In this document: positions 41,261 through 57,630 of the stretch, piece by piece
How positions within the stretch are numbered: the stretch's first letter is position 1
How the letters are laid out: each line of letters starts with the position of its first letter
NCBI GenBank assembly: GCA_965224255.1
Contig: CBDCYO010000004.1
Span: 2,449-66,448, forward strand
Length of the DNA stretch: 64,000 nucleotides
Reading direction: 5' to 3'
Origin: Dehalococcoidia bacterium
GTDB lineage: Bacteria; Chloroflexota; Dehalococcoidia; UBA6926
The notes under the pieces: generated by a model
Told to the model about the DNA's origin: nothing
Database searches by the model: none
What the model saw: only the letters and a program-made list of their open reading frames with translations
Program-made: the position numbers and the translations under genes

Positions 41261-42311
41261 TGTCGTCGCGGTCCATGACCAGGCCGCAACAGAGACATTC
41301 GTAAACGCGCTTGCTGAGCGGCATGTCCTGCGGTTCGCCGCACCTGCTGCATCTCCGGGTGCTGGGAAAATCCCCCGGCGCCTTGACGAACCTGACACCC
41401 GCAGCCTTGCACTGGCAGGCGATCTTGCGCTGCAGGGCGCTCATGGCAGCCCTGGCGATTCCCCCCGCCAGACGCCTGCCGCTCCGGTTCATCATGTCGC
41501 GGACATCCAGCGACTCCACCACCACCATGCGGGCCTTGGCGACGATCTCTTTGGCTGCCTTGTGCTGCACCTCTTCACGCCGGCACCTTGCCAGGTAGCG
41601 AGCTTTCTGAAGCTGGCGCTGCACACGCTCATGATGGCGGCTTCCCTCAACCTGCCGGGCCAGACGCCGCGTGAGGCAGCCGATCTCGCGCCGCAGCGAC
41701 CTTAGCGCCTCGGGGATCTCGTAGCGTGTTCCGTCCGAGCACACCGCGATGGTTCCGACGCCCACGTCGACGCCGATGATCTCGCTGCCGGGACTTTTGG
41801 GCGGATTCTTCATTTCCACCGCCACGCAGGCCCACCAGCGTTCATCCTCGTGCGTGACCGTCACCGCGGAGATACGGCCTTCAGGACGCAGGGACCGACG
41901 CATGCGGACGCTGCCGATGTTCGGCAGTTCGATGCGCTTTTTTTCGCACCGGACTTTGACCCCTCGCTTGTCGGCGCGAAAGGCAATCTTGTGGTCCTGG
42001 CCGTGGAACCTGGGGAATTTGTTATCGCGGGCGTTGTTCTCCCAGGCATTGATCGCGTTTTCCAACGCATAGACAGCATGCTGGCCGGCGCTCCGGCACA
42101 ACTGGGTGGACTGCGGATACGCTGATGCTCGCTCTCCTTCCCACACGGGTAAGAGCATGCTGGTGGGATACGACCCTTTTTTGGCAGCGCACTTGTCTTT
42201 GTAATCGCGCAGCATCGAGTTGTAGGCGTCGCGGCGGTAGTCGGCGTGTTGTTTCAACAGGCGCTGCTGCTTCGGAGACGGGGTCAGGGCGATCTTGCGG
42301 GTACGATTCAT
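41214..42311 (-). CDS. tnpB: TnpB (IS200/IS605-family RNA-guided nuclease), no adjacent tnpA
   Basis: 365 aa. RuvC motifs IIGVDVGVG, VVVESLDV and DRDDNAALN. Zn ribbon CSRCG...CLCCG. Confidence 0.85.
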   Translation of the reverse strand: MNRTRKIALTPSPKQQRLLKQHADYRRDAYNSMLRDYKDKCAAKKGSYPTSMLLPVWEGERASAYPQSTQLCRSAGQHAVYALENAINAWENNARDNKFPRFHGQDHKIAFRADKRGVKVRCEKKRIELPNIGSVRMRRSLRPEGRISAVTVTHEDERWWACVAVEMKNPPKSPGSEIIGVDVGVGTIAVCSDGTRYEIPEALRSLRREIGCLTRRLARQVEGSRHHERVQRQLQKARYLARCRREEVQHKAAKEIVAKARMVVVESLDVRDMMNRSGRRLAGGIARAAMSALQRKIACQCKAAGVRFVKAPGDFPSTRRCSRCGEPQDMPLSKRVYECLCCGLVMDRDDNAALNLQHYGEALSL

Positions 42312-42685
42312 GGTATGAGTTCCTTGGGACAGGTGTTACAGGTGAGCCGGGAGCGGGCGAGAAGTCTCTTGCGAGATGCTCGTGGCGCCGGCATGTTGAC
42401 AGGGGGTTGCGATATCCGCTGGTTTTGCCCGACTTCGTGATTCAATACATAGAGAAGGCAAGAAAGGAGAAGATCAGGTTTTCCCGTTCCCCGGTCATGC
42501 TTGGGGATTTGCGGGCTTGCAAGGATATGGGATTGGCCGTTTGGGAGATGAGAGGGCCACCGCTTGTCCGCCGACTCTCGACAAGGTTGCACGTTTCTTC
42601 TCTCCGCCGGCAGGCTGCGGAGTAAAGACGGGACGGGACGGTAGGGATGTGGCGGGACGGCGTTCCCGATTGCGGGTGGAAAAAC

Positions 42686-42721
42686 GAGTGCCCTGGCGAG
42701 TCTGTGCTCACCAGGGCACTC
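42686..42721 (-). terminator. Rho-independent terminator-like hairpin
   Basis: 11-bp stem GAGTGCCCTGG/CCAGGGCACTC followed on the minus strand by GTTTTTCC. Confidence 0.55.
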
Positions 42722-42722
42722 T

Positions 42723-42830
42723 CGTGTGGGGATCGCGGACCTTGTCAAGGTCGCCGGCGTCGAGCTTGCGGGCGCGGTCGATGTAGTTGGGCGTGGATGG
42801 TCCGTGGATGATTTTCTGGCTGGGACTGAT
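42723..42830 (-). pseudogene. Fragment of a tyrosine integrase paralogous to 49666-50589
   Basis: PNYIDRARKLDAGDLDKVRDPHT compares with PNYTDKARSLDQGSLGKVRDPLT in the intact gene. Confidence 0.6.
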
Positions 42831-42900
42831 TGGTGCGATTGCGGCCCTGGAAGGCGCCGCCGCAAGGCGAGCCGGCGCCCGAAAGGGCCAGATTCGCTCC

Positions 42901-43042
42901 GGGAAGGGGTCTCTTGGCGTCTCGGGCGCCAAAAAAGACCCTCAGGATCGCCTGTGGCGCGTTTTTTCAAACGGGGTAGTACGATGAGAAGGGGGCAAAA
43001 ACGGCCACGGGGGAAACGATCCGCCATGAAGGCGAAGTCAGG
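42901..43042. repeat. GC-rich dispersed repeat, copy R2
   Basis: Aligns with the R1 reverse complement and with 56690-56990. Confidence 0.6.
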
Positions 43043-43145
43043 TAATGTTGAAAACCGCCGCATAGGCAGTCAAGTAAGGGGATTATAGAAAGATTTCGGG
43101 TATTTGTGTAGTTTTCAGGAAAGTTCGACAAGTAATTCAGTCAGG

Positions 43146-43184
43146 AAAGGGGCGACGGCCTTCGGGTCGGACGCCCCTTTTTTC
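43146..43184. terminator. Bidirectional rho-independent terminator
   Basis: AAAGGGGCG..CGCCCCTTTTTT. Confidence 0.6.
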
Positions 43185-43208
43185 GTGTGCCGTGGTTACT
43201 CAGGAGAA

Positions 43209-43925
43209 TCAGCGGCCTGGTTTCCGGATCCGGTAGTAACCCTGGGGCATCCGTTTGGCCGGTACGTGAGGGGCGTCTTTTTTGACGGGGACATCCATCG
43301 GCAGGGGTTTGTCCAGTGGTGGAAGCGGCGACTTGGTTTCCGGATAGAGAGTTTCCGGGTGTGGTGTTGGCGGCCGCGCAACCAGGTGATGATGTTTTGG
43401 GTCGTGATGGTACTGGTTCATCTGCATGCGGGGCGGCTCGTCGGGCAGGTCAATGTGCTCGGGATGGGGTTCTTGCCCCCGGTGACTCTGTCTGGGAGCG
43501 TTGGGAAGGTAGACCGCGTAGTGACGAACTTCCTTGTCCAGCCGCGGATTGTACCGGTGCCAGGCGTGACTTGCAGCCTTGGACGCTTTCTTGTCGAGGT
43601 TGGCGACGGCTTTCTGGAGAGCGGCCTGGGCTTCCTTTCTGAAAATGGTGCCTGTTTCGCTCTTGGTCGAGGTGATGCGGAGTCGTTCGGCGATGCGAAA
43701 GGGGTGTAAGCGCTGGAGACGTACGAGGTCTCCGAAGACGTGGGCGAAGAATGTCTGAACCTCGGCGAACGGAACAATAGGGGCATAGCCTTCGAAGTGA
43801 ACGACAACTCGGGTCCGGCCTCTGCGTCTGATGATGTAATAGGTGAGTTCGCGTCTGAGCAGGATGGCTTCGTCCAGGTTGCAATCGTGGGGAAAGTCTT
43901 CGGCAGCGTGTATGTGGATGGACAT
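43209..43925 (-). CDS. Hypothetical protein with a Pro/His-rich tail (238 aa)
   Basis: The N-terminal ~140 aa look globular. Weak RBS. Confidence 0.45.
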   Translation of the reverse strand: MSIHIHAAEDFPHDCNLDEAILLRRELTYYIIRRRGRTRVVVHFEGYAPIVPFAEVQTFFAHVFGDLVRLQRLHPFRIAERLRITSTKSETGTIFRKEAQAALQKAVANLDKKASKAASHAWHRYNPRLDKEVRHYAVYLPNAPRQSHRGQEPHPEHIDLPDEPPRMQMNQYHHDPKHHHLVARPPTPHPETLYPETKSPLPPLDKPLPMDVPVKKDAPHVPAKRMPQGYYRIRKPGR

Positions 43926-45351
43926 GGCAAGTACTCAGAAGGTTGATTTGCGCCGTCAATGTTCTTTTCGGAGCCGGTCGTTCGGGTTGTAAAGGAGTAA
44001 TTATCGGGAAATTCGCGGGGATGGTAACAGTTTGCAGTCTGGTGGGCGAGAGCAAATGTTCCCTGGAGAGGGTGGAAGCTGAAGGGTTGGCGGTTTCCGC
44101 AGGGTTTCTCAGGGCCTGTTTGCTCGTTTGCGGCGGGAGTGGCGACGGGTGGCGTGCCAGACGTACGCAGAATGTCCAGCTGCTGGGCGATCTCTGTGTT
44201 GTAAGCGCGCGCATGGTTGAGGGGCGTGGAGCGTTTCGGTGAGGTCGCTCAGCAAGATGCTGAACGCTTCCTGATTGAATACCGGTGGGTACGGGGTCCT
44301 TGCGGCTGCTTCGAGGGCTGGTGCGTCGCAGAAAGAACCGGTGTCGACCGGTGTGGACTGGATCGGGTCGGAACGTGTCCGGTTCTCTGTGTGCGTAATC
44401 AGGTCATGTCCTTCTTGATGGGCGCCAGGATGAGGTTCTGGGCCAGGACGAAGCCGCCAAGAGTGAGTGCGGCGGTGAGAAGAACGACGCAACCGGTATG
44501 AACAAGTCCCTTGCTTGGGTTCATGTCTGGGCTTTTGGGCGGACTGGGCGCCAGCTTGTTGGACTTTGGATGCGCCGGTGGCGCCGGATGTGCTCAAGGA
44601 TCGATGTCTTCATGAGCGACGCCGGCTTGTGGAGGAGGGAAGTTGTGGTGTCAGGGGGGTCTTCTGCTTTTGTGACGGCAAGGATAGCCAGGGAGTCTGC
44701 TTCAGAAGAGGGGGGCAGACTCCCCGACGCTTCCCGTAAATCATTATAGGACTTGCGTAATTTCGGGTAATTTTGCCTTTGAGGTTGCACCAAGTTATGA
44801 TGCCGCCGTTCCTGCTGCACCCCTCAGTTGCTTTACGCAGTGAGATTTACCTTTCCCGGTAGGAGTTTGCAGCAGCTCCGCCGCTTGGAAGGGCCGCTTT
44901 TTTGGGCTCTTCCCGGCAGTTCCATTTGCTTGGAGGAAGTTTCCGGGACTTCTTCCTCGGCGTTGTGCGAAGACATAAGCGCTTCACGCACGCCGTATTC
45001 CGTTTCGGCTTCCGTCACTACGAGGACGGGGCCACATTCGGTTTCCTCAAGGGACGACGATCTATGCGGTCTTCAGCCGCTTTCCCCATGCCTGAACCTG
45101 CCGCGTCGAGCGGCAGCTCCGGCTTTTTATGCTCTGGCGTCCAGCCAGGCCATCAGTTCCCCGCTTCTGCGTCCAGTGGAAGCGCGGATGTTGTGTGCCC
45201 TCGCGTTCAGCGAGGCCATGGTTTGACCGTCAACCCCGGTCGTTCAGAACCGGGAGGCAGCACAAACCGTCGTCCAGACGGGAATTTGTGCGGCTCCGCA
45301 ACCCGCAAAGTCGTAAGCGGGTGCGGTCTGGGTTTCATATACGCCTTTGGC

Positions 45352-45383
45352 GTCACTAGCGGGGGTGTGATTACGCTAGTGAC
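45352..45383. repeat. Perfect 10-bp-stem hairpin
   Basis: GTCACTAGCG-12 nt-CGCTAGTGAC inside an ORF-poor stretch. Confidence 0.6.
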
Positions 45384-45818
45384 GACGGAACGGCGTAAAC
45401 GGTTTAAGTCTTTAAGAACGAAAGGTTTAGCTTGGGTTGAACTGGCGTTCACTGGGTATTTTTCAAGTGAGACGTCAAATTGTCCACAATTTTGCCTTTG
45501 GTAAGGGTGCGTCCCTGCCGAAGCTGTGCTGGAGACTCGCAGTAGCCCCGCAAGGGTGCGAGTTTCAGCGGCTCTGTTATTCCCCCCGAGTACGGGTGGG
45601 CCAGACACGACATGCTCTGTCTGGTGAGGGCCTGAGCACTGAGCGGTCAATTCCCCCACAAATCAGGGCAGATTAAGCCTGTTCAAGGTTTTTTCCACAG
45701 GAAAAGACTGGTACCGGAGGTGCGTTCAACCTTCGGAGTCGGCCGGTAACGGCTCTGGCGCTGACATGGGGAATCGTCCGTAGGTAGGTCAGATAAAGGG
45801 GGCCTGAGAGGGTATTTA

Positions 45819-45895
45819 GGTTGATTAAGGGTGGTATGGGTTAGAACGGGTTGAATCAAGGTTGAAAATGGGTAGATCAACCATCGGTTGAATTG
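45819..45895. repeat. Phased GGTTGA(A/T) repeats (iteron/operator-like)
   Basis: GGTTGA at 45819, 45849, 45860 and 45886, variant GGTTAG at 45839, inverted TCAACC at 45877. Three central copies are 10-11 bp apart. Confidence 0.5.
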
Positions 45896-46179
45896 GCTAA
45901 GGGGTAGCTGAGAGTGGCTGGACATGCTGCGAGTTCAAGTTGTAGGAGTCAGTTTCAAGAAATGGTTTCCTGGCGTTAATGCCAGGATCAGGCCGAATAC
46001 GGGCAGATTCGTGCTCTGGTCTGGAAATGATGTCGGGAAAGGGTCGAGGGCGGTTGAGAGCTGCCGCGGACCTGGGGCATTGGGTGGTTGGAAAGGGTTG
46101 TCGATGGCATGGGTCGGCGGCTCGAATGGATGGGTCGGGAGCAGGGGCAGTTGGAAGAGAATCTGGACGGAGGGTCTTG

Positions 46180-46470
46180 ATGGAGAAGTTGGACGTGGAC
46201 ACGCTGCGGGGTCGCCTCTCGGAAGCATTTCTCAACCCGGTGATTGCCGAGGCTGTGGACCTAGTCTGGGCGGAGACGTCGCTGTCGCTCCAGCGGGCCG
46301 AACTGTTGGTGAGGTGCTGGGAAGTAGCGAGAGGCAAGAACCGGGGTCTTCTGCAGTTGTACCTGGACCGGCCGTGGGAGTTCGTAGAGTTGGTCGAGTT
46401 GGTTGAGTTGGTCGAGGGTTTTGAGGAGACAGGTGAGTTCGATTGGGAACGGGGACTGGAAAGACTTTGA
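46180..46470 (+). CDS. Hypothetical acidic protein (96 aa) with an ELV x3 repeat
   Basis: RBS GGAGGG. 9-bp tandem GAGTTGGT(C/T) x3.3 at 46387-46416. Confidence 0.5.
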   Translation: MEKLDVDTLRGRLSEAFLNPVIAEAVDLVWAETSLSLQRAELLVRCWEVARGKNRGLLQLYLDRPWEFVELVELVELVEGFEETGEFDWERGLERL

Positions 46471-46479
46471 GTGATTGCC

Positions 46480-46566
46480 CAGGGTTTTTTCTGGTTGGGT
46501 AGTGTCATGGGAAGGGTGTACCCGGAAAAACGCTTCTGAGGCGATTCTGGGAGCAAATTCGGGAAT
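46480..46566. repeat. ~85-bp direct repeat, copy a
   Basis: CAGGGTTTTTTC.GGT.GGGTAGTGTCATGGGA..AAAACGCTTCT.AGGC.ATTCTGGGAGCAAATTCGGGAA. Confidence 0.7.
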
Positions 46567-46710
46567 CGTTGGTGGGGTCGGTTGTCGGACGGCTGAGGTC
46601 AAGGGCGGGGGCGTGGCTTTGGGGCGTGGGCGGCGTAGCGGGAAACGCCCCCGCCCTTGTCTGTGGGTGGGTCGTGGATCTGGGATTCTTTCAAGCCGGA
46701 GGAGGTCGGG

Positions 46711-47025
46711 ATGAGCAAAGCGAGGCAGAGGGAGCGCAAGGAACTGAGGCAGAAGCATGGGGTCCATGGGGGGACTTCGCCGGCGGTCCCGGGAGAGGGC
46801 ACTGGCAGGGACGTTGGCGGCTTGCCGTCACACATCGAGATTCCGCGTCATACGATTCAGGCGCTGGCGCAGGCTGCAGAGCTACCGCCGTTCATGAAGC
46901 GGTTCCTGGATCAGGGCCGGGATCCGGCCGAAGGGTTTCTTGAGTTTGTGGACAAGCTGCAGAACGCGACCCCTGAAGAGGCCGAAGGCTGGGTTCGTGG
47001 TGAGGAGGAAAATACGGACAGCTGA
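46711..47025 (+). CDS. Hypothetical protein (104 aa)
   Basis: Strong RBS GGAGGAGG. The acidic C-terminus loosely resembles that of 46180-46470. Confidence 0.5.
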   Translation: MSKARQRERKELRQKHGVHGGTSPAVPGEGTGRDVGGLPSHIEIPRHTIQALAQAAELPPFMKRFLDQGRDPAEGFLEFVDKLQNATPEEAEGWVRGEEENTDS

Positions 47026-47066
47026 GCGGAGAGAGAGGAGGTTGAAAAACCGTCTGAGTGTCCGTT

Positions 47067-47151
47067 CAGGGTTTTTTCGGGTCGGGTAGTGTCATGGGAG
47101 GGTGCTGCTTTGAAAACGCTTCTCAGGCAATTCTGGGAGCAAATTCGGGAA
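47067..47151. repeat. ~85-bp direct repeat, copy b
   Basis: Matches 46480-46566. Preceded by CCGTCTGAGTGTCCGTTCAGGG, which recurs at 56949-56970. Confidence 0.7.
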
Positions 47152-47163
47152 CGGTAAAGCCCC

Positions 47164-48627
47164 TCACCAGGGGCGGAGCGGATCAAGGACTTCCGCGGGC
47201 CAGGTGAAGTGGTAGGCAAACGGTTCGTGTTCATCTTCGAAGGTGATGTTTTTCTCGTCAACTTCCCGGACGGTGAAGTGGTTCCAGACGTCAGTCGTGT
47301 CGGTGTCGAGATAGAGCGATTCCGTAACGATGAGCAGAGCGCCTTCTTCGTCGTATGTGGTCTTGAAGTCGGGGCCGCGTTCGAAGACGTCGAGAGCCTT
47401 TACGTCGTTCTTGTCGCGGGCCTGGGTCGTGAGGGTCTCTTTGTCGAGGTGGGGTTGCGGCCGTTCATGGACAGCATCGAGGACGTAGACGTTCAGGTAA
47501 TGGAGCCAGATGTCGAAGGCATGGGTCTGCAGGAAGTGGTTGTACTCGATCAGGGCGTAGGTCATGTCGTCGATAATTTCTTCGGGCTTGAGCACTCGTT
47601 TTGGGTCGCCGCTTTCGAAACGGGAGAAGTCTGTTGGATTGCGCTCGAGGTAATCACCGATGGGGAAGATCGTTTCCGACTCGGGCAGGGTGTCGATCGT
47701 CCGGGCAAGTTCGTGGCAGGGGTTCCGGATGTCTCTGGCGATGTGCCGCAGGCCCTGCCGGTTTTGCGGCAGGTCGAGGGCGGCTTGGCGCGCGAGGTAA
47801 TCCTGGCAGGAAGGATCCATCAGCGTGTATTCGTCTGGGTCCTGGAGATCGTCCAGGGTTGTCATCACGGGCAGGAAGTCGTGGGGCCAGATGAAGGTAT
47901 GGGCGCGGCGAATGTCTTGCTGGTGGTGACGTCGGAAACGTTTGGTGAGGCCGGGAACGTCGGCCAGCTGTTGGGTCGATATTTTCTCCCAGGCTTTCGG
48001 GTCGGTGATCTCTCCGGTTTCCGGGTCTTGCATGGCTTTGGAAAAGATGAACGCCGGCGGCTCTTCCCGGAAGACGACTCGCAAGACAACGTCGCCGTCT
48101 TCGATGCGGAGCGTGAAGTCAGGACCGTTTTCAAGAATCTGTTTCGGAGACTGGTGGGCGCCAACCAGGAAGTCGATTTGAATTTGTCCGAAAGGGTCGA
48201 GGCCGTGTTTGGCGTCGATCGGGTTTTTGGGAATGTCTGAGAGGGCCAGGGCTTCGGCGCGGTTGGCGGGGAGTTTGACCGCGGTGGTGTCAAGAACGTG
48301 GGCGCGGACCAGGTAGTGAACGGCCAGGACCCAGAACACGTTTGCTTCCAGGATGAGAAGACGGAAATAGGTGCTTGCCGCCATGGCCTGCTGGCAGGTC
48401 AGGTGTTGACCTCTGGTTTCGGTCAGCAGGTTTCGGAAAGGAAAGAGCGGCTGGATGTGGTTGGGGATGTCCAGGAGGCTGTGGACGATGGTCCGGAGGG
48501 GCTCGTCCACAGCCTCTTGCATTTGTACGAGGTCGTTGTGGTCTTTTGCGTATGGGTTGTCCAGAGTTTCCAGAAATCCGCCAAGGACGTCTTCGTCGAG
48601 GGTGGTGGTGTAGGGCTTGTTCGGCAT
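47164..48627 (-). CDS. Large hypothetical protein (487 aa), last gene of the integrase operon
   Basis: ATG at 48627 preceded by GGAGA. 19-nt gap after the upstream gene. No recognisable domain. Confidence 0.65.
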   Translation of the reverse strand: MPNKPYTTTLDEDVLGGFLETLDNPYAKDHNDLVQMQEAVDEPLRTIVHSLLDIPNHIQPLFPFRNLLTETRGQHLTCQQAMAASTYFRLLILEANVFWVLAVHYLVRAHVLDTTAVKLPANRAEALALSDIPKNPIDAKHGLDPFGQIQIDFLVGAHQSPKQILENGPDFTLRIEDGDVVLRVVFREEPPAFIFSKAMQDPETGEITDPKAWEKISTQQLADVPGLTKRFRRHHQQDIRRAHTFIWPHDFLPVMTTLDDLQDPDEYTLMDPSCQDYLARQAALDLPQNRQGLRHIARDIRNPCHELARTIDTLPESETIFPIGDYLERNPTDFSRFESGDPKRVLKPEEIIDDMTYALIEYNHFLQTHAFDIWLHYLNVYVLDAVHERPQPHLDKETLTTQARDKNDVKALDVFERGPDFKTTYDEEGALLIVTESLYLDTDTTDVWNHFTVREVDEKNITFEDEHEPFAYHFTWPAEVLDPLRPW

Positions 48628-48646
48628 GGCTGTCGGGTCTCCACTT

Positions 48647-49639
48647 TCAGGTCCTGGCAAGGATTTCTTCGACGTCGTCCCATTCGGCCGGGGGCATGGC
48701 GCCAACGGCCAGAAGTTTCAGATTGCGGCTCGTGCTGGGGGCATCACGGGTCATGACCGTCGGATAGGTCTCGTTGGTTACGGGGTGGTCCATGTCCGGG
48801 GCGAGCAGGCCGCAAAAGAGTGCTGTGGCTTCCTTGTAGGTGAGGCCGAGGACCATGCCGGCGATATGTCTTACTTGGTCGGGGTCGGTATTGCCCAGGT
48901 GGCTTGTCACGTGGTTCCCGAAGCGGCTAAGGGCCCAAAGGGCAAGGTTGCCACCCCAGGAGCCGTCGTTCATGACAAACGGCAAGCCCCGAGACGGGTC
49001 GAGAATGAGGGTCGAAAGGTGGCTGCGGAGGTCGCGGGGCGTCCACCAGAGCTCGTCGACGGTCTGAAAGTGGTCGTCGCTTGTGCTGGGGAGGTCTTTC
49101 ACCATGTCTGCCAGTTCGAGCAGACGCTGGTTTCGAATGTTCAGGCTGACGTGGTTCCAGGCTTCAACCGGGCTTTGGCCGTCGGCGCAGGCTCTGAGAA
49201 CGGAGGCGGCGTGCTGCGGCGTGATGGCGTCGAAGCGTCCGAGAAGGCAGGCCGGGTTGAGGATCGGCGATTGGCTTGTGGTCAGGACGGTTCCGGCAGG
49301 TGGTTCAGGGAGCCCCAGAGCTTCAGCGGCGATCTTTGCGATGGCTTCCTGCGTAAGCGGCAGGGGGATGTCTTGTTCGCGGGCTGCGGTCAGGGCGGCC
49401 CAGGCTTCGAGATTGCCGCAGACGATGTTGTACCAGGGAATCCAGGAAGGTTCGAAGTCGCTGTCGCGGACGTCGCCGGTCATGAAGAAGCTGTCGAGAC
49501 GGTCAAGGACTGGCTCAACGTCGGTGTGGTCGTGCCGGTTAAAAGCATTGTAGTAGCTGGCTTCGTGGCTGAGTTGGTAAGGCGGCAGGCCGTCCAGGAT
49601 ATTGGCCAGGCGGTTCAGGAAGGGGTTGTTCATCTGCAT
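48647..49639 (-). CDS. Hypothetical protein (330 aa), integrase operon
   Basis: ATG at 49639 preceded by AAGGAG. 26 nt after the integrase stop. No recognisable domain. Confidence 0.65.
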   Translation of the reverse strand: MQMNNPFLNRLANILDGLPPYQLSHEASYYNAFNRHDHTDVEPVLDRLDSFFMTGDVRDSDFEPSWIPWYNIVCGNLEAWAALTAAREQDIPLPLTQEAIAKIAAEALGLPEPPAGTVLTTSQSPILNPACLLGRFDAITPQHAASVLRACADGQSPVEAWNHVSLNIRNQRLLELADMVKDLPSTSDDHFQTVDELWWTPRDLRSHLSTLILDPSRGLPFVMNDGSWGGNLALWALSRFGNHVTSHLGNTDPDQVRHIAGMVLGLTYKEATALFCGLLAPDMDHPVTNETYPTVMTRDAPSTSRNLKLLAVGAMPPAEWDDVEEILART

Positions 49640-49665
49640 GACTCCTTTGAGGTTTGGGTTCAGGT

Positions 49666-50589
49666 TTATTTTCCGAGATAGACGTAGGTGATTCGCAGGC
49701 GTCCATGCCCCATTTCCTCGCTGATCTTCAGGCGCGCCTGGACGTCGATCTTGTGGTTTTCTTTGGAAAGGTCGTCTTGGGGTAGTCCGCCTCTTGCGGG
49801 ACAGTGCCACCCTTCTCCGTTTGGATCGAGTTGTCGGGTGAGGGTTCTGTAACGTCGCTGGGCATAGGCATGGCGTAGGCCGTGCAGGTTGGAAAGGCCG
49901 GCGCGGCGGGCTTGTGTCTTGTAGACGTTGCGTTGTTGGTAAAAATCCTTGTCTCCCGGTACCAGACTTCTGCCTGGCGGAACGAGGGCTTTTGCTTCGT
50001 TCAGGGCCTGCCGTTGGCCGGGGGTGGTCAGGAGCACGTCGCGGGGCTTGCCGCCTTTCGTCCAGCTGTCTTGCAGGTGGATGCGGTCGCCGCGGTCGGC
50101 TTCGTGCGGTCGGATCATGATGGCCTCTTTCTGCCGCAGGCCGAACTCGCGTTGGAGGATGAGGCTCGCATGCGTCAGAGGGTCGCGGACCTTGCCCAGG
50201 GATCCCTGGTCGAGACTGCGGGCCTTGTCGGTGTAGTTGGGTTTTTCCCTGGGTGGAAGCATGCCGTACTCGTTGTTGGTGCGCTTGACGATGTTGGGCT
50301 TGCCGATTTCGGCGGCGAACCAGCGCAGGGCGGACAAGCGGTTGTCAATGGTGCGGCGTGAGATGCTGTTGTCAGCCCACATTTGCAGGGCATGCTCGAT
50401 GTGTTTGGGCCGGGTGTTCTCCGGCTTGGGGTTGTAGCCGCCGTCGTAAAGGGTCTGCACGAAGATGCGCAGGTAGCTCTCGCGTGCTTGGCGGGTTGCG
50501 TAGGAGCCGCTCGGGGCTTTTTCCTGGTGGACGTAGTCCAGCCACTTGCGCAGTTTGTTGTTGCTCAGGGGTTTGGGGTTGTTTTGCAT
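49666..50589 (-). CDS. int: Tyrosine recombinase / integrase
   Basis: 307 aa. GLRQKEA...HGLRHAYAQRRY...GHGRLRITYVYLG gives the R..HxxR..Y pattern. Confidence 0.8.
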   Translation of the reverse strand: MQNNPKPLSNNKLRKWLDYVHQEKAPSGSYATRQARESYLRIFVQTLYDGGYNPKPENTRPKHIEHALQMWADNSISRRTIDNRLSALRWFAAEIGKPNIVKRTNNEYGMLPPREKPNYTDKARSLDQGSLGKVRDPLTHASLILQREFGLRQKEAIMIRPHEADRGDRIHLQDSWTKGGKPRDVLLTTPGQRQALNEAKALVPPGRSLVPGDKDFYQQRNVYKTQARRAGLSNLHGLRHAYAQRRYRTLTRQLDPNGEGWHCPARGGLPQDDLSKENHKIDVQARLKISEEMGHGRLRITYVYLGK

Positions 50590-50591
50590 GG

Positions 50592-50915
50592 TCAGGGGAC
50601 CAGCTGTCGGTCGTAGATGCGGCCGATCCAGCGGATGGCGGAGAGCCGGTCGTTAATGGTTTTTTGTTTGACTTTGAGCTGCCAGAGGGTTTTCAAGAAA
50701 GCGGTATGGTCGGGGGTGAACTCGTCCGGTCGAATGACCATGCCGGCTTTGGCCAGGGTTCGGGCGATAAGAAGAATGAGCCGTCGGCGTTCAAGCCGCG
50801 TTGAGGGCTTGTTGGACCGGTGACGGTCAAGAAGGTCCTCCCAGCTCTTGTCGATGTTTGGGCCGTGTCGTTTTTGAATCCGGGCGATTTTCTTGCGGGC
50901 GCTGCGGGTTGGCAT
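50592..50915 (-). CDS. Stand-alone integrase N-terminal-domain paralog (107 aa)
   Basis: TINDRLSAIRWIGRIY parallels TIDNRLSALRWFAAEI in the integrase. Its stop lies 2 nt before the int start. Confidence 0.6.
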   Translation of the reverse strand: MPTRSARKKIARIQKRHGPNIDKSWEDLLDRHRSNKPSTRLERRRLILLIARTLAKAGMVIRPDEFTPDHTAFLKTLWQLKVKQKTINDRLSAIRWIGRIYDRQLVP

Positions 50916-51132
50916 GGTCAGTTTGCCTACTTGGGATGAGGGAATTTGTTGGAAGGGGGATTTTGAGCCGTTTTTGCAGGCGGTGCAAGGAATTCCTGGA
51001 CTTGATGAGATATTTTCGGGATGGTTTATGTCCTGCGGCGAAGACGGCTGTCGTGTCGCAAGGGTGCTTGTCTGCCGGGTTGTCCTGTTGATGGTGAGCA
51101 GGGATCAAGATGCTCAAGGTTCAATAAGGGTT

Positions 51133-51161
51133 GGAACAAGGCGGACAAGGATTGGACAAGG
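51133..51161. promoter_or_regulatory. Three phased GGA(A/C)CAAGG repeats in the divergent control region
   Basis: GGAACAAGG, GGACAAGG and GGACAAGG spaced 10-11 bp apart. Confidence 0.45.
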
Positions 51162-51258
51162 ATAGATTGCCTTTTCGGGAACGATTACGGTATAACGAAA
51201 CAGGTATGCGGCAAGGGGTCCAGTCCGTTCAGGAAAAGACTTGTTGGGGAGGATTCAG

Positions 51259-51648
51259 GTGGTAGCGAAAAACTCGGAAACGGCGCCGAAAGGCAAGGTC
51301 AATATCCTCGATCGGTTGCAGGCGCGAGGAAGGATTCCCGGAACTCGAGGTGGCACGAAGCTTTCGAAGTTCATGGCCAGGGAAGAAGAAATCCGTGAGG
51401 CGCTGGCAGCCGGGTATTCGATAAAGGACGTGTATGACTGTTTGCAGGACGAAGGCGTCATTGACCTGTCGTATTCGCTTTTCAGCGAGTATGTGCGGAC
51501 GAAGTTGCAGATGCGTCAGCGGCAGGGATTTGAGCGCGTCAAGGTGATTGCGGAAGGAGAAACGGTAGTCCAGGAACCTCAGCTGACCGAAGAGGAGAGG
51601 AAGCGGAACATGATGGTTCACGGCAATCCGGAAGGCCGGCCGGCGTAA
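51259..51648 (+). CDS. TraK-like (RP4 oriT-binding protein-like) small protein
   Basis: FMAREEEIREALAAGYSIKDVYDCLQDEGVIDLSYSLFSEYVR resembles my recollection of RP4 TraK (FLAVRADVEAALASGYALVTIWEHMRETGKVKFSYETF). GTG start after GGAGG. Confidence 0.45.
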   Translation: MVAKNSETAPKGKVNILDRLQARGRIPGTRGGTKLSKFMAREEEIREALAAGYSIKDVYDCLQDEGVIDLSYSLFSEYVRTKLQMRQRQGFERVKVIAEGETVVQEPQLTEEERKRNMMVHGNPEGRPA

Positions 51649-51676
51649 AGAGGCGGTGAAGCAAGGAGCTGAAACC

Positions 51677-52030
51677 ATGTATCGGGAGCACATGAGCAAG
51701 GCAGGCATGGTGGTGGTGCAGATTCACGATCGTCTTTGGTCCTGGCAGGGAGACCGGTTGTACAGACTGCTTGTTGCCGGCTTGCTGGGAACTCTGGTGT
51801 TGTCGGCGGTCTTGTTGTGGACCGGGTTCAGGTCCCCGGACGACCATTGGGAGACAGTGGCTGGCAGTCGGGCGGCCGTGGCGATCGAAAGCTTCAAGCT
51901 GCGCCGGTTGACTTATCGGTTGCCGCCGGAGTGCGCGATTGTGGTGTTGTTTGACAGCCCGGGAGCGGTCGGTCGGTGCTTGTCGGAAATCAGCGGTGAT
52001 GCTGCAAAGGACGAGCCATCGGTCAGGTGA
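51677..52030 (+). CDS. Small membrane protein
   Basis: RBS AAGGAG. TM helix LLVAGLLGTLVLSAVLLW. Confidence 0.5.
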   Translation: MYREHMSKAGMVVVQIHDRLWSWQGDRLYRLLVAGLLGTLVLSAVLLWTGFRSPDDHWETVAGSRAAVAIESFKLRRLTYRLPPECAIVVLFDSPGAVGRCLSEISGDAAKDEPSVR

Positions 52031-52047
52031 ATGAAGAGAGGGTTGCC

Positions 52048-52539
52048 ATGAGTTTGGAAGCGGTCATGTACGAATGGGCAGGGACAGTTCCTGGACTCGG
52101 GGCGGGGTCCTTGATCGTCGGCGGCGTGATCTATGGCGCCTGCCGATTGATGGGCAAGAAGATGTGGGTGGTCGGTCCGAAGGGTTTGGGGGAGGTTGTC
52201 GAGGTGAACGTGCTTGAGTGGCCGCTGGCGCCGGCCTGGCTTGTTGGTGTGGTGCTGGGGATGCTGTCCTATGCGGTGTTTTACGGGTTGGGGCTTCCTG
52301 TTCTGGCGCCGAGTGTGTGGATCGGTGGCTTGTTGGGAATTGGCGGCTATGGGGTGGCGAAGATGCTGTCGGAAAACTGGGTGCATTACGAGACGTCGCC
52401 GTCCGACGAGGTGCTGGTAGCGGTTGGCATGCAGCGAGACAGTTTTGACGAGCTGGTGAGCCAGTGGCGTGAGCAGGCTGGGAAAGCGCCCAGGCGTGGT
52501 TGCTTGCGTCGCGCGCCGGGTGCGCGGTGGGCAGCGTAG
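52048..52539 (+). CDS. Multi-pass membrane protein
   Basis: At least 3 hydrophobic segments. Start could be 52027 or 52048. Confidence 0.5.
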   Translation: MSLEAVMYEWAGTVPGLGAGSLIVGGVIYGACRLMGKKMWVVGPKGLGEVVEVNVLEWPLAPAWLVGVVLGMLSYAVFYGLGLPVLAPSVWIGGLLGIGGYGVAKMLSENWVHYETSPSDEVLVAVGMQRDSFDELVSQWREQAGKAPRRGCLRRAPGARWAA

Positions 52540-52561
52540 GCCAGGGGGAGGGTTTCAGAGC

Positions 52562-53047
52562 ATGGAGATCGAGTCGGTCGGGCCGTCGGCATGGGTCATG
52601 GCGGGTCTGGTTGTTGGCATGGCGATAGCCGGGCTTCTGGTCGTGGTTCTGGGCTGGCGGTTCTTGAAGTCGGCGGCGATGTTGGTCATTGCTCTGGGGA
52701 TGCTTGGCGGGCTGGGGGTGGTCATGTACGCCGTCGTTCTGGAAGAGCCGGTCGATATCGAGGGCTGGCGAGGGAAGCTGGAATCCGGCATCGAGCGCCT
52801 GAAGGAGGTGGTTCTGGAAATCCGGGAGTCGGACGGCGAGGCTGGCGAGCGGGAGTTTTTTGGCCCCAGGATGCCGTCAGGAAATTTTGTTGCCAAGCGA
52901 GTGTCAAGACTGGGGGGGAGTCCTGAAAAAAGGGTAAAGGAGAGCTGGAATGGAAGACAGGGACCTGGACAAGTTGTCCGAGAACGTCATGGCGCTTTTG
53001 CGCGAGATGTCGCAGCGGCAAACGATGATGTTTCACTTGTTGCGTGA
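52562..53047 (+). CDS. Membrane protein (2 TM) with charged tail
   Basis: RBS GGAGG. The 3' end overlaps the next ORF by ~100 nt, so the true stop is uncertain. Confidence 0.45.
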   Translation: MEIESVGPSAWVMAGLVVGMAIAGLLVVVLGWRFLKSAAMLVIALGMLGGLGVVMYAVVLEEPVDIEGWRGKLESGIERLKEVVLEIRESDGEAGEREFFGPRMPSGNFVAKRVSRLGGSPEKRVKESWNGRQGPGQVVRERHGAFARDVAAANDDVSLVA

Positions 53048-53399
53048 GATATACGAGGAATCGAGGTTGCCGATCAAGCTGGTGCGGGAGGTGGACGAAG
53101 ACGTGTATCTGTCGCGGCGCAATCCTCGGGACCGGGGGGTTTCGGGCAGAGACGAGGACGACAGGGAAGGGGATGATCCGATGGCACAGCTCGAAGGCAT
53201 GGGCAACCCGGACGCCATCCCGATGGTCCCCGAGGGCATGCAGGTGACCTGTATTCGGTGTAGTTACCAGTGGCGGCCAAGAATTCCGCAGCCGTCGCTG
53301 TGCGCCAAGTGCAACGCGCCGTGGTGGTACGCGCCGCGTTGGCGCTGGCATCTGAAGGACAAGAAAAAAGGGAAGGCGCGTGTTACCGGGATTGAATAA
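52950..53399 (+). CDS. Zinc-ribbon protein (149 aa)
   Basis: RBS AAGGAGAG. CIRCSYQW...CAKCNAPWW. Confidence 0.55.
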   Translation: MEDRDLDKLSENVMALLREMSQRQTMMFHLLREIYEESRLPIKLVREVDEDVYLSRRNPRDRGVSGRDEDDREGDDPMAQLEGMGNPDAIPMVPEGMQVTCIRCSYQWRPRIPQPSLCAKCNAPWWYAPRWRWHLKDKKKGKARVTGIE

Positions 53400-53498
53400 C
53401 GGGGAGGCGTGATATACTCCGGATTGCTTTGCCAGGGTAATTTTGAGTCGGACCATTAACAGCGAAGGCCGGACGGCTTCATACGCCGTCCGGACGGC

Positions 53499-55253
53499 GT
53501 GCTCGACTTCTTACCAGCTCTGCAACTGGAGTCGATGCGAACGGCAGCACACCCCCAGCCGTTATTCAACGGCGACCCTTCTGCTTCAACACTCCTCACG
53601 ATTGATCCCAGAACGTCTCCTCAGTCCCCGTTAGCGTGTGTTCCGTATCCGGAGCATGCCGGCGCGGTTGTGCTGCGCCTGGCGGTGTCCAACCCTTTTG
53701 AGGGTGTCAGACCTGAACCGGGCCCTGTCGTAGGGCAGCTGGGAGCGGAGGTCCCCGGGCTGCCGGCGGGTGTCCAGCCCTGCGTGGTCTTTGAGTGCGG
53801 ACCGGGTCCGGGTGGCTATCGTGCATTGGGGTCTGGTGTGATGGTCAAGGCTGCGACCTGGTTCCTGCGGACGGGTACGGAAGGGAAGACGCAGGTGGTA
53901 TACGTCTTGCGGGACCAACGATTGTCGCAGGGGGTCCGGAAAGGAGTCATGCTGCAGCGATTGCTGGCGTGGTACGGGGCTTGCCTGGAAGCTGAAGACA
54001 GCTATCTGGGCTGGGTGCGGCCGTTGGAGTTCAGGAACCTGTTGCCAATGCAGGTACAGTCAGGACGTCAGGATGGTTACCGGTTTCTGGAGCTTTGCTC
54101 GGGGGTGCAAAAGGATCTTTCGGATTTGGAGCACCAGCGGTTCGGGGCGCTGGCCCGGTTTTTGTACGACCGCGGGGCGCACTTTGTACTGACGAACGGG
54201 GAGAAGCTTCCGGTCGGTGAAAGCAAGGGTGTGAAGGGGAAGGGCTGGCTCGAGCGGCGTCCGGCGCTGCGTGAGGTCCTGCGGCACCGGGAAGAAGGTG
54301 GTCTGTTGGGGCTGGTTCCGTGGTCGGTGGGACTGTCGGTACTCGATGTGGACGAGGGTTCGCCGGGCGAGTTGATGTCGGTCTTTCCGCCAGCCCTGAT
54401 GCTGAAGTCGGGAACGTTGAGGCGTTACCACGTCTATTACCGGGATGTGCGGGGACGGGGCAACGGCAACTGGGTGGGTTACAAGGCCGCTGGTCAGGTG
54501 CGGAGCGGTTCTGGCTTCGTGGTCTTGTGGCAGGGTCTGGGGGCACTGGCCGGGATGTTGGCTGCTGGTGCGGGCGGCGTTCTGTTTCCGGAGTCCTCGG
54601 TGGTTTTGACGGTAGACAGGAGCAAGCGTTTCGGGCCGGCGTGGGAACCTGCCATTACGGGCGGGTTGGCGCCTTGGGAAATGAGCCGGAGCACGGCCAA
54701 CGGGGTGTTGTTCGAACAGTTGAGGCTGTGGGCTTACAGAGAGTGTCACAAGCCGCCGTTCCTGGATCTGTGGCTTGAGCGGGTGGCGGCGAAGGCACGG
54801 GAGCTGGCGGTAGACGCCGGGTTTCTGGGGTTGCTCAGTCCGCAAGACGTCATGGGTATTGCCAGTAGCGTGGGGTCATGGGTGTGGGCCGAACACAGGG
54901 GGCAATCGGGAGAGGGCCGACGTCGGACCAACTCGGTGCAGCAGCGGAAGCGGGCGCTGGTCAGGTGGTATGGGTGTGAGGAGGGATCTGTCGTGGAGAA
55001 CTTTGATATCCGTGATTACGAGATCGGCCGGCAAGCCGTCAAAGACGGTCTGACGACGGCGCAGTTGGTCAAGGAGTATGGGTTAGGGCGAAGACAGGTT
55101 TATCGGTTGGTCAAGCGATTTCGGGCCAGTCTGGAACCCGGGGGGCCGCAGTTGGTGGCTCCCTGGTGGACGAGGCCGGATCCGTTGGAGCCGGCAGGTG
55201 AGCTCTCGGTCTTTGACGAATTGCTCAAACACAAGATGTTCAATGAGTTATGA
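53499..55253 (+). CDS. Primase-polymerase / plasmid replicase-like protein with C-terminal HTH
   Basis: LSVLDVDEG (DxD), RRYHVYYR and GQVRSGSGFVVLW fit the AEP prim-pol motif order. C-terminal GLGRRQVYRLVKRF. Start uncertain. Confidence 0.55.
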   Translation: MLDFLPALQLESMRTAAHPQPLFNGDPSASTLLTIDPRTSPQSPLACVPYPEHAGAVVLRLAVSNPFEGVRPEPGPVVGQLGAEVPGLPAGVQPCVVFECGPGPGGYRALGSGVMVKAATWFLRTGTEGKTQVVYVLRDQRLSQGVRKGVMLQRLLAWYGACLEAEDSYLGWVRPLEFRNLLPMQVQSGRQDGYRFLELCSGVQKDLSDLEHQRFGALARFLYDRGAHFVLTNGEKLPVGESKGVKGKGWLERRPALREVLRHREEGGLLGLVPWSVGLSVLDVDEGSPGELMSVFPPALMLKSGTLRRYHVYYRDVRGRGNGNWVGYKAAGQVRSGSGFVVLWQGLGALAGMLAAGAGGVLFPESSVVLTVDRSKRFGPAWEPAITGGLAPWEMSRSTANGVLFEQLRLWAYRECHKPPFLDLWLERVAAKARELAVDAGFLGLLSPQDVMGIASSVGSWVWAEHRGQSGEGRRRTNSVQQRKRALVRWYGCEEGSVVENFDIRDYEIGRQAVKDGLTTAQLVKEYGLGRRQVYRLVKRFRASLEPGGPQLVAPWWTRPDPLEPAGELSVFDELLKHKMFNEL

Positions 55254-55836
55254 GGATTGAAGGGTTTATGGCGTTCTGTCCGAAGATTCTACGAAGTTCT
55301 GTAACGAGCTGTTTTTATGTATGTTTCGCAAATTTTGATACGAAATTCTCATATTGTGTCATGCCGCTTTATCTTGGCTCTTCAATCTTCCCGACCGTAT
55401 CTGTAAGGTATGGGGATTAAAACTGTACAGTTCTGGATAGTACCTAGCCCTTCTTAATTCTCCGCGGTTCAGAATACTTCAGGTGCAAGTCATCAGACCC
55501 GCCCCCGAGACTTCGGGCCCGCTCGAGTTCGCCCCCGCCTGCAAAGAGTCTTATGTGTGTGTGCGCCTGCTTTGCCCTGTCCTGCTTTGCCCTGCCTTGC
55601 CTTTTTTTTGTTCCCGGCCGGGAGTTTCGTTGCCTGTGACGATTTGGAGCTTCGGCCGGTCCTGCCCTGTTTTTCAGCCTTTCAGGGGATTGATCCCCGC
55701 TTTTCAAAGGTTTTTACCTTCCCGCCGTGCCCCGAAGTCTGGAGCGTAGCGACGGACGTAGGGGTGCGGCACCAGTGAGCGAAGCGAACGGCTCACCCGT
55801 ATTTTGCTGAGGGTGAACTGGCTGATCGCTGGGGTG

Positions 55837-56566
55837 GGTTTATCCCCGCGCGTGCGGGGGAATTGACCTGATGAACGGCATGGAAGTGTGGACGGATGGT
55901 TTATCCCCGCGCGTGCGGGGGAATTGGGCAAGCTGCACCCGCGTCGTGGTGTTGGCCGTCTTTATCCCCGCGCGTGCGGGGGAATTGGGTGTTCTGTTCA
56001 TTTCCCCCTTGCCGGGAGGTTTTTATCCCCGCGCGTGCGGGGGAATTGGGGTGCTGCGCGTCAACTGATCGGGGGGGTCTATCCCCGCGCGTGCGGGGGA
56101 ATTGGGGTGCTGCGCGTCAACTGATCGGGGGGGTCTATCCCCGCGCGTGCTGGGGAATGTTCGAGTCAAGCGTTCGAGAAAGATCGCCCCGAGGGAGCTC
56201 TTGGTGTCAGGCATAGCTATAGGCTTCTTCGGAGGTGAAGAACAGGCAGCCGGCAAGTTTTGGTCTATCCCCGCGGGTGGCGGGGGAATGGATCGATGGG
56301 TTTTTCTCAGGTTGCGAGCCGCGGGGCGGGAAAAGGGCTGGTGTCTGGAGGGTCACGGGCGGTCTGGAATTGCCAGAGGGCCTTGAGGGTGTGGTCGAGC
56401 GAAGCGTTGGGCGGCAGTTCGAGAAAGACGGTGTAGGCCTGCTCCAGGAGATCGCGGACGCGGGGCAGGTGGAGCTTGATGGTTTCGGTGCGGAAGCGGC
56501 CATCGGGTGCGGAGGGTACGAGGCGTTGGGAGTTTCTGGGTCTATCCCTGGGAGTGCGGGGGAATC
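55837..56566 (-). CRISPR. Orphan, partly decayed type I-E-like CRISPR array
   Basis: 29-bp repeats GGTTTATCCCCGCGCGTGCGGGGGAATTG at 55837, 55898, 55959, ~56020, 56076 and 56132, with degenerate copies at 56262 and 56539. First three spacers are 32 bp. Reverse complement ends GGGGATAAACC as in I-E. Confidence 0.85.
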
Positions 56567-56654
56567 TTTGAGTCAAGCAGGTTTGGAAACGTGGGTGATG
56601 ATGTCGTTGAGGATGACGGTAGCGATCTGGCTCATGTGGCGAACTTTCGTTGGT

Positions 56655-56990
56655 GGTTTCAGGAATAATGCCCGCGATTTCGCTCCAGATGGCCTGTAGG
56701 GGGTTTTCAGGGGCAAGGATGATGATGGAGTCGTCCCTGATGAAAAAATGCCTTCAAGGGGGGCTCAGGGATCAAAAACGGGAAGCGAAAAGCTTGGGGT
56801 CAGGCGGTGGGACGGGGGTGTGTTTCGGTTTTGGATATGAAGGGCGTTCGGGTTTCAGGAATAATGCCCGCTATTTGGCTCGAAATGGCCTGTAGCGGCT
56901 TTTTTGGGGTAAGGATGATGAATGGACCCACGTCGGGGGGATAAATCCGTCTGAGGGCCGTTCAGGGGGCAAAAACGGCGAAGCCTGAGG
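56655..56990. repeat. Tandem ~196-bp duplication (R3/R4) related to R1/R2
   Basis: Units start GGTTTCAGGAATAATGCCCGC at 56655 and 56851. Each contains ATGGCCTGTAG..GATGATGA..CAAAAACGG. Confidence 0.65.
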
Positions 56991-56991
56991 C

Positions 56992-57546: not shown

Positions 57547-57630
57547 GTTGTAGGGGTAGATCGGTCATGTTGTAGGGGTAGATCGGTCATGTTGTAGAGG
57601 TAGATCGGTCATGTTGTAGGGGTAGACCGC
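57547..57630. repeat. 22-bp tandem repeats x3.8 (iteron-like)
   Basis: GTTGTAGGGGTAGATCGGTCAT at 57547, 57569 and 57591 (1 mismatch), with a partial copy at 57613. Confidence 0.8.

Follow-up and report, generated by a model that had tools for sequence, protein, structure and literature searches.

Two orphan proteins encoded behind a tyrosine recombinase in a multi-copy, strand-asymmetric mobile element of soil Dehalococcoidia

Four tightly packed genes on the minus strand at positions 47164-50915 are the subject of this analysis. They lie in a 64-kb stretch of DNA from a Dehalococcoidia bacterium (phylum Chloroflexota; contig CBDCYO010000004.1), hereafter called the window, within a plasmid-like element of about 16 kb. 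The initial annotation of this DNA, made from the letters alone, had described an integrase operon in which an integrase and a paralog of its N-terminal domain are followed by two large proteins, and the positions, intervals and ribosome-binding sites that it gave were all found again. The element, the operon and its immediate surroundings are laid out below (aa, amino acids; pI, isoelectric point; IS, insertion sequence; oriT, origin of transfer).

42000-58000, no strand: the whole element, with uniform strand asymmetry; a TnpB IS at the left edge and a DDE IS at the right edge
50592-50915, minus strand: orf107, a basic (pI 11.6) protein that stands alone and is paralogous to the SAM-like core-binding domain at the N-terminus of the recombinase
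49666-50589, minus strand: Int307, a 307-aa tyrosine recombinase of the PF12834+PF12835 family
48647-49639, minus strand: orf330, an acidic (pI 4.7), soluble protein; the likely start at 49633 gives 328 aa
47164-48627, minus strand: orf487, an acidic (pI 4.8), soluble protein, probably made of two tandem units of ~240 aa
50916-51240 (325 bp), no strand: intergenic region between the divergent orf107 and TraK-like genes, with direct repeats of the CCTTGTCC type; we infer a candidate promoter or oriT
51241-51648, plus strand: DUF5338 protein, divergent from the operon and 31% identical to a 'TraK family protein' of Yersinia conjugative plasmids (E=2e-4)

The genes of the operon are separated by 2 nt (orf107/Int307), 26 nt (Int307/orf330) and 19 nt (orf330/orf487). 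The second of these gaps widens to 32 nt when orf330 is started at its second ATG (49633), which is the start used by all homologs. The ribosome-binding site of orf330 is AAAGGAG, with AAGGAG lying 8 nt upstream of that second ATG, and the one of orf487 is GTGGAGA, with GGAGA placed 12 nt before the start. No terminator-like site was detected in the junctions of the four genes, and the few weak consensus matches are on the opposite strand and inside coding sequences. Long antisense open reading frames (ORFs), such as those on the plus strand here, are the usual by-product of GC-rich coding sequence. That orf330 and orf487 are real genes under purifying selection, and not chance ORFs of GC-rich DNA, follows because clusters of homologs keep their frames open and the ratio of nonsynonymous to synonymous substitution rates (dN/dS) is 0.3-0.5. 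The open frames are kept across 13 homolog clusters for orf487 and 21-23 for orf330, at 62-97% identity and all from ENA/Logan metagenome assemblies. In pairwise comparisons with nine other copies, dN/dS was 0.30-0.54 for orf487 and 0.40-0.49 for orf330, with a value of 0.93 in one near-identical pair; the recombinase gave 0.18-0.45 and the neighbouring TnpB about 1.

The domain between 42.0 and 58.0 kb recurs on many contigs, where it is collinear and 88-95% identical, and sample ERZ25071132 alone contains at least six copies of it, two of them on one contig of 343,746 bp. The element is multi-copy, plasmid-like and mobile, in one soil Dehalococcoidia lineage, and the window around it has plasmid-like content too (ParA, ProQ/FinO, ParE and Tn3-family transposases). 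No free circular form was seen among the contigs of 10-12 kb that were examined, all of which are labelled linear. The four-gene operon is present in the same order and with the same tight spacing in at least 11 copies of the element. Also recurrent across copies are the divergent DUF5338 gene, a gene for a 149-aa Zn-ribbon protein and a gene for a 238-aa protein, and small membrane-protein genes beside DUF5338 occur in most copies, not all. The variable parts are a HepT/NTP_transf_2 toxin-antitoxin (TA) pair, a gene for a secreted protein, IS elements and also the replication module, for which the alternatives are a protein of 570-584 aa or the combination of Toprim_3, AAA_25 and a 463-aa protein. 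Because orf330 and orf487 are present in every copy while the accessory genes vary, the pair behaves as an invariant core of the element and not as swappable cargo, and the proposal that it is the cargo of an island integrase is not supported. The presence of the operon is constant and its sequence is the most divergent segment of the element, as the identities to the window copy indicate:

orf107, across copies: 38-94% identity to the window copy
orf330, across copies: 75-95%
orf487, across copies: 62-97%
DUF5338, across copies: 90-99%

The initial annotation had held that its proposal would fail if the two large genes did not co-occur in other genomes. An orf330 homolog was found directly upstream of an orf487 homolog in 13 of the 13 loci with enough flanking sequence, which are L001-L006 and L010-L014 of the close family and the more distant L007/L008 (~35% identity), and orf330 and orf487 are therefore a co-inherited pair. 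The recombinase and orf107 precede the pair in every close-family locus. In L007/L008, the pair belongs to a five-gene operon without a recombinase, whose products have 178, 165, 333 and 465 aa, followed by a 247-aa single-unit paralog of orf487. This locus is a decayed, IS-bounded remnant: fragments of an IS and of an S24 peptidase flank it at one end, and at the other come AbiEi/AbiEii and then an array of clustered regularly interspaced short palindromic repeats (CRISPR) with Cas1/2/4/3. In L003, the recombinase gene (L003 999-1979) is frameshifted in the middle and at the C-terminus, and the orf330 and orf487 homologs downstream of it are intact. The 4-nt coordinate overlap of the recombinase and orf330 genes in L003 is no evidence of coupling because this recombinase is frameshifted.

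Both large proteins had been described as of unknown type and devoid of any assignable P-loop, nuclease or transmembrane pattern, and this description survived every sequence and fold search that was run. Neither orf330 nor orf487 contains a Walker A, HxH, HExxH, CxxC or PD-(D/E)xK motif, a transmembrane segment or a signal peptide, and neither matched Pfam, PHROGs, PADLOC or NCBIfam. The defence hidden Markov models (HMMs) of PADLOC-DB v2 gave no match at E<=0.01 for any of the four operon proteins or six neighbours, and PDB sequence profiles returned nothing at E<=10 for the two large ones. When the members of the divergent alignments were scanned one by one against the family libraries at E<=5, no consistent weak family emerged; a YscD Bon-like match (E=0.011, in 4 of 13 members) and single VRR_NUC/DUF123 matches were judged to be due to chance. 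An exhaustive HMMER profile search of 1.84 billion representative proteins retrieved only nine relatives of orf487. No relatives of either protein were present in IMG/VR or the JGI metagenomes, and a tblastn search, performed with orf330 only, gave nothing among 72,556 plasmids (E<=1) or 50,697 GenBank phages. Across the 185,579 species of GTDB, the two genes occur in just one Dehalococcoidia metagenome-assembled genome. Both protein families are new and have an extremely narrow distribution. The structures predicted by AlphaFold2 from shallow alignments had a predicted local distance difference test score (pLDDT) of 41 for orf330, which makes the model unusable, and of 59 for orf487, with better values at residues 160-250 and 360-487. 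Comparison of these low-confidence models with PDB and BFVD by Foldseek, a check that the initial annotation had proposed, gave no match better than E=0.4, and no homology to housekeeping proteins was found.

The protein encoded by orf330 is predicted to be mostly helical and has no detectable homolog outside its own small family. An identity as an actin-like ParM was considered and ruled out by the helical prediction and the absence of the phosphate motifs. As for orf487, a ~240-aa unit is probably duplicated in tandem within it. The support is suggestive and not decisive: the two halves aligned collinearly over 151 columns in hhalign, but at E=0.0095, and the probability reported was no higher than 4%. 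Each unit displays an lFP motif and, in a long helix, an invariant W; it also has a GPDFxL beta-hairpin and a terminal hxW(P/T), and a basic RFRRHH patch marks the end of unit 1, directly before its hxWP motif (residues 231-235). The invariant residues of the broad alignment are mainly G, P, W, F, L and A, together with one D and one R, and look structural rather than catalytic. A PD-(D/E)xK nuclease core read into the GPDF...hairpin was ruled out, since there is no (D/E)xK, no fold match and no acid in unit 1. The unit also exists in single-unit genes of 247 aa (L007) and 299 aa (L009), and in tandem arrays in L009 and on the TARA ocean contig L021, where the copies are tandem paralogs. The 299-aa gene located upstream in L009, tried as an orf330 homolog, turned out to be one of these single-unit orf487 paralogs. 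Five loci (L004, L006, L010, L012 and L013) carry two divergent tandem orf487 paralogs of 478 and 487 aa that are ~62% identical, and the window copy has the 487-aa type only.

Int307 exceeded the Pfam gathering cut-offs of both PF12835 (Integrase_1; 38.4 bits, cut-off 23) and PF12834 (Phage_int_SAM_2; 35.3 bits, cut-off 22). Its alignment with 40%-identical plasmid homologs showed that the catalytic R, K, HxxR, H and Y are conserved (FGLRxxE, SWTKGGxxR, HGLRHAYAQ and ELGHxR...T.VYLG), and a family-specific GW-CP-GG insert is located before the last H..Y. The earlier description of orf107 as a paralog of the integrase N-domain was confirmed by BLASTP against this domain of Int307 (E=8e-9, 29% identity), and orf107 also has a weak Phage_int_SAM_1 match. 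Homologs of Int307 at ~40% identity are encoded on about 225 proteobacterial plasmids, mostly typed 'non-mobilizable'. In the plasmid homologs inspected, a small overlapping ORF comes directly after the recombinase gene and a type IV coupling protein (T4CP) gene is adjacent or near; partners resembling orf330 or orf487 are absent from them.

PF12835 is the HMM signature for MpsA, the atypical relaxase of the tyrosine-recombinase type encoded by Salmonella genomic island 1 (SGI1) (PMC10484663). MpsA requires MpsB, a 98-aa protein resembling a recombinase core-binding domain; its gene belongs to the same operon, at a distance of one codon, and the oriT of SGI1 adjoins the mpsA and mpsB genes (PMC6414798). 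Int307 is like MpsA in its membership of PF12835 and in keeping the catalytic Tyr and the R/H/R/H residues, a likeness of Pfam family and architecture. By its architecture, orf107 may correspond to MpsB, being a separate core-binding-domain-type protein of ~100 aa, encoded in the same operon 2 nt from the enzyme gene. The setting is comparable as well, with an operon placed on an integrative, plasmid-like element and plasmid homologs that adjoin T4CP genes. In contrast to the SGI1 module, the operon of the window continues with two large genes that have no SGI1 counterpart, and its host is a member of the Chloroflexota and not of the Gammaproteobacteria; the candidate for a cognate oriT is the 325-bp intergenic region (50916-51240) with its short direct repeats. 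The name 'integrase operon' was right about the tyrosine recombinase, given the PF12834/PF12835 domains and the catalytic residues, but the label 'integrase' is not supported for a protein of the MpsA signature family with an MpsB-like N-domain partner, and the name may be a misnomer.

A further likeness concerns the divergent gene. The oriT region of RP4/IncP plasmids lies between a traJ-traI relaxase operon and a divergent traK leader operon. The window has a TraK-family-like gene divergent from the putative relaxase operon over a short intergenic region. Unlike the MOBP HUH relaxase of RP4/IncP, the candidate of the window is a tyrosine recombinase, the TraK similarity is weak and no nic site was identified. 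A literature search on DUF5338 and on Dehalococcoidia mobile elements gave nothing useful.

The most conspicuous property of the element is its extreme strand asymmetry. Over the 16 kb between 42 and 58 kb, the plus strand has a GC skew of +0.2 to +0.4 and an excess of T over A, and in the rest of the window the GC skew is ~0. The skew is strongest at third codon positions (GC3 skew) and goes with the DNA strand whatever the orientation of the gene, and the IS and TA insertions within the element are unskewed:

Four operon genes, minus strand: GC3 skew of -0.41 to -0.45 on the coding strand
p238, the 238-aa protein gene, minus strand: -0.34
Genes of the element on the plus strand: +0.32 to +0.44
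Genes lying outside 42-58 kb: ~0 to -0.1

Extreme skew is also present in the close-family copies L001-L006 and L010-L012, and the distant relatives L007, L009 and L021 (the last a contig of 68% GC) have a C-rich coding strand with GC3 skews of -0.32 to -0.48. Such a uniform skew is the signature of a replicon with one strand repeatedly single-stranded; unidirectional or strand-displacement replication, or the repeated transfer of the same strand, are possible causes. Two further genes of the element, one of its core and one for replication, are the following:

43209-43925, minus strand: p238, the conserved 238-aa protein of the element core, dN/dS 0.15-0.32
53499-55253, plus strand: 584-aa putative replication protein with a weak ColE2-P9 Rep-like region followed by a C-terminal helix-turn-helix (HTH)

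In the 584-aa protein, the region of residues 401-550 matches weakly the DNA-binding domain of ColE2-P9 Rep (401-484, E=0.06) and a small-plasmid Rep (401-550, E=7e-3). Motifs of the archaeo-eukaryotic primase type (DxD / HxYY) were seen by eye only, and an AT-rich stretch comes after the stop codon. These features recall ColE2-type Rep, a primase-type initiator of unidirectional replication (PDB 3vw4), through the DNA-binding-domain match and the AT-rich stretch, and the uniform skew fits unidirectional replication. The protein differs from ColE2 Rep in being much larger and in having an extra HTH, and the E-values are marginal.

The invariant linkage of the operon, the core status of its genes and the absence of catalytic motifs in the two large proteins lead us to favour, tentatively and with appreciable doubt, a reading in which the four genes are the DNA-processing operon of the element, serving mobilization and/or recombination, with Int307 and orf107 as an MpsAB-like pair and orf330 and orf487 as lineage-specific, non-enzymatic accessory proteins. 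Under this reading, Int307 and orf107 would act like MpsA and MpsB of SGI1, as a relaxase of the tyrosine-recombinase type that is possibly also the recombinase of the element, at a site within the 325-bp intergenic region or close to it. The orf330 and orf487 proteins, presumably produced from the same transcript, would assist the DNA-processing step, either by scaffolding the nucleoprotein complex or by coupling it to host or helper machinery for transfer or establishment. Repeated passage through a single-stranded state, during transfer or during unidirectional replication from the ColE2-like Rep, would deplete one strand of the element of C. Several points weigh against this DNA-processing reading. 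No T4CP, type IV secretion system or FtsK-like transfer genes were seen in the element. The gene order is small-then-large, with orf107 upstream, and not mpsA then mpsB as in SGI1, and Int307 retains its own PF12834 N-terminal domain, unlike MpsA as described in PMC8152469. It is unlikely that orf107 reads a site in the intergenic region, because this region is 88-95% identical between copies even where orf107 drops to 38%. The pair is not strictly dependent on the recombinase, since it persists where this enzyme is absent (L007/L008) or frameshifted (L003). The accessory role assigned to orf330 and orf487 would derive from operon position and nothing else. Finally, the multi-copy chromosomal state still needs an integrase, and Int307 may simply be that enzyme.

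The setting was the reason for which the initial annotation had suspected a novel defence or anti-defence system, and the context that it listed is there: CBASS (cyclic oligonucleotide-based antiphage signalling system) Cap2/Cap4-SAVED, AbiJ, AbiEi, ParE, and CRISPR repeats with a Cas6e fragment make the window rich in defence genes. Positive evidence for such a system in the pair itself was not obtained, and a role in conflict is a doubtful, though serious, explanation. In that case, orf330 and orf487, together with the single-unit paralogs where these are present, would be a self-contained system of defence, anti-defence or competition between elements, permanently carried and expressed with the DNA-processing genes; in one possible form of it, the acidic proteins would mimic or sequester nucleic-acid-binding factors of defence or of rival elements. 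Persistence of the pair beside AbiEi/AbiEii and CRISPR-Cas in the L007/L008 remnant, and its integrity behind the broken recombinase of L003, favour this. So does the diversity of orf487, which varies more than any other gene of the element: copies with 94-99% identity elsewhere share only 62-97% in this gene, many have it as a divergent tandem pair of paralogs, and in L009 and L021 its unit occurs both in single-unit genes and in tandem arrays. DNA-mimic anti-restriction proteins are acidic, and so are both proteins (pI 4.7-4.8). However, an ArdA/Ocr-type mimic was not recognised in proteins of 330 and 487 aa with no Pfam match and no fold match by low-confidence models, and typical anti-defence proteins are far smaller than either. 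Nothing in PADLOC, Pfam or the fold comparisons links them to any defence or anti-defence family, and no NTPase, nuclease or other effector motif was seen. The overall dN/dS of 0.3-0.5 does not indicate positive selection, the presence of the pair is invariant between copies, unlike that of typical hotspot cargo, and the coexistence of several copies of the element in one genome argues against strong exclusion.

It is rather improbable that Int307 is the site-specific integrase or resolvase of the element, with orf330 and orf487 as architectural or directionality factors of the synaptic complex, like TnpS/TnpT of Tn4651 or Int/Xis/Exc. TnpT is a ~330-aa orphan accessory protein, the partner of a tyrosine recombinase in cointegrate resolution in the Tn4651 family, and provides a precedent for orf330 behind Int307. 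The full-length Int307, with its core-binding domain and all catalytic residues, is linked to the pair in a tight operon in all close copies, and some recombinase must act on an element integrated at many places, twice on the 343,746-bp contig. Nevertheless, the tnpS and tnpT genes are divergent around res and those of the window are co-directional with a second, larger partner, and TnpT homology of orf330 found no support in the tblastn search at E<=1, which was empty for 72,556 plasmids that would include TnpT. The pair without a recombinase in L007/L008, and the plasmid homologs of Int307 without the pair, also speak against this role. A classical genomic-island or prophage integrase module was not recognised: the 64-kb window contains no transfer RNA (tRNA) or transfer-messenger RNA that could be a target, and no att-type direct repeat pair brackets 42-58 kb, although both ends abut IS elements and may be obscured. 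Even less likely, to the point of being a marginal option, is a structural or morphogenetic role of the two proteins, in an element that is virus-like or carried by vesicles and passes through a phase of single-stranded DNA, in which a repeat-unit coat or nucleoprotein packages the G+T-rich strand. The coding-strand GC3 skew of -0.32 to -0.48 that is found with the gene family in each of four separate lineages (window type, L007, L009 and L021), the tandem paralogs of the repeated unit and the cluster of small membrane proteins point in that direction. On the opposite side are the absence of matches in IMG/VR, PHROGs, BFVD folds and GenBank phages (orf330 only for the phages), the lack of any capsid, portal, packaging ATPase or Zot-like gene and of an HUH Rep, the acidity of the proteins, which is unfavourable for coating DNA, and co-transcription with a recombinase instead of a place within a structural module.

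Other features of the element lie outside the operon, at its left end and around a direct repeat, termed R:

42454-43043, minus strand: pieces of a second recombinase gene (PF12834 type), into which an IS605-type TnpB element (41214-42311) is inserted
47055-47151, no strand: repeat R copy 1, a direct repeat of ~86-97 nt directly after the orf487 stop
46468-46565, no strand: repeat R copy 2, which with copy 1 flanks a small gene (46711-47025, plus strand)

The second PF12834-type recombinase gene, at the far end of the element, is truncated, and every copy seen has the IS605-type TnpB inserted into it. The insertion is also found in L002-L006, L010 and L011, with a TnpB dN/dS of ~1 between copies, and a hairpin with a 15-bp stem (42686-42721) is located within the stretch of TnpB and the second recombinase (41214-43043). 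Repeat R has a third, partial copy at 42945-42992. Recombination at R is suggested by L001 and L002, in which the repeat is present three times and an additional gene for a secreted protein lies between the copies. The repeats have no secondary structure beyond that of shuffles (z 0 to -0.7), and an integron with attC-like repeats was rejected, R being unstructured and the operon convergent with the small genes. The 2.2 kb between 43930 and 46160 are conserved between copies like coding DNA (~90-99% per column), with neither a three-base periodicity of substitutions nor a conserved ORF. The core of this region (45080-45520) has a predicted fold much more stable than those of its shuffles (z as low as -6), around an invariant 140-nt centre and with a few compensatory changes in the flanking hairpins. 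An Rfam scan of 42.3-47.2 kb found nothing; possible identities of the conserved stretch are a large non-coding RNA and a single-strand origin. Also inside the skewed element, a degenerate type I-E-like CRISPR mini-array (55838-56291, degenerate repeats to 56568) combines a 29-nt repeat (GTTTATCCCCGCGCGTGCGGGGGAATTGG) with three spacers of 32 nt and one of 27 nt that is duplicated, and none of its spacers matched the fetched element copies or other fetched sequences. A C-terminal fragment of Cas6e (56992-57402) lies beside it, and other copies have Cas5 and Cas6e-like genes at the same place. Four tandem iteron-like repeats of 22 nt (GTCATGTTGTAGGGGTAGATCG) occupy 57542-57626, at the right edge of the skewed domain and just before the DDE transposase gene (57664-58929). 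Elsewhere in the window is a mosaic of other mobile and defence genes (525-4286; 11428-14686; 16342-17247; 28385-35211), made up of CBASS Cap2 (ThiF/E1-like) with a Cap4-SAVED effector, a TniA/TniB-like pair with a serine resolvase, a protein with an AbiJ N-terminal domain and additional transposase genes of the Tn3 family, including a truncated one. Group II intron RNA domains (D1-D4 and D5-D6) are present in two inverted copies with identical scores, at 5364-6215 (minus strand) and 10101-10952 (plus strand), which flank a Tn3-family transposase gene (7061-9685).

To our knowledge, relaxases of the tyrosine-recombinase type (MpsA, TcpM and MobK) have been recognised only recently, are poorly understood and come from a handful of Proteobacteria and Clostridia only, and gene transfer in the Chloroflexota is essentially unknown. 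What is new here is best filed as a tyrosine-recombinase-type DNA-processing module in an unexpected phylum, with two orphan partners. It is conceivable, at long odds, that orf330 and the GPDF-unit proteins (orf487 with its paralogs of one and two units) are the signature genes of an unrecognised class of mobile elements with a largely single-stranded life, which would account for the GC3 skew of ~0.4 seen in four separate lineages from soil and ocean; such elements would combine new machinery to process, protect or export a strand with a tyrosine-recombinase-type relaxase, in wall-less or monoderm hosts without classical type IV secretion. The extreme uniform skew is a usable signature to search metagenomes for similar elements. 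If the pair were a conflict system, it would represent a type of defence or anti-defence without a recognisable enzymatic domain. If the DNA-processing reading is true, a related module in the Chloroflexota with two obligatory orphan partners would extend the tyrosine-recombinase relaxase route to that phylum and provide candidates for its missing components.

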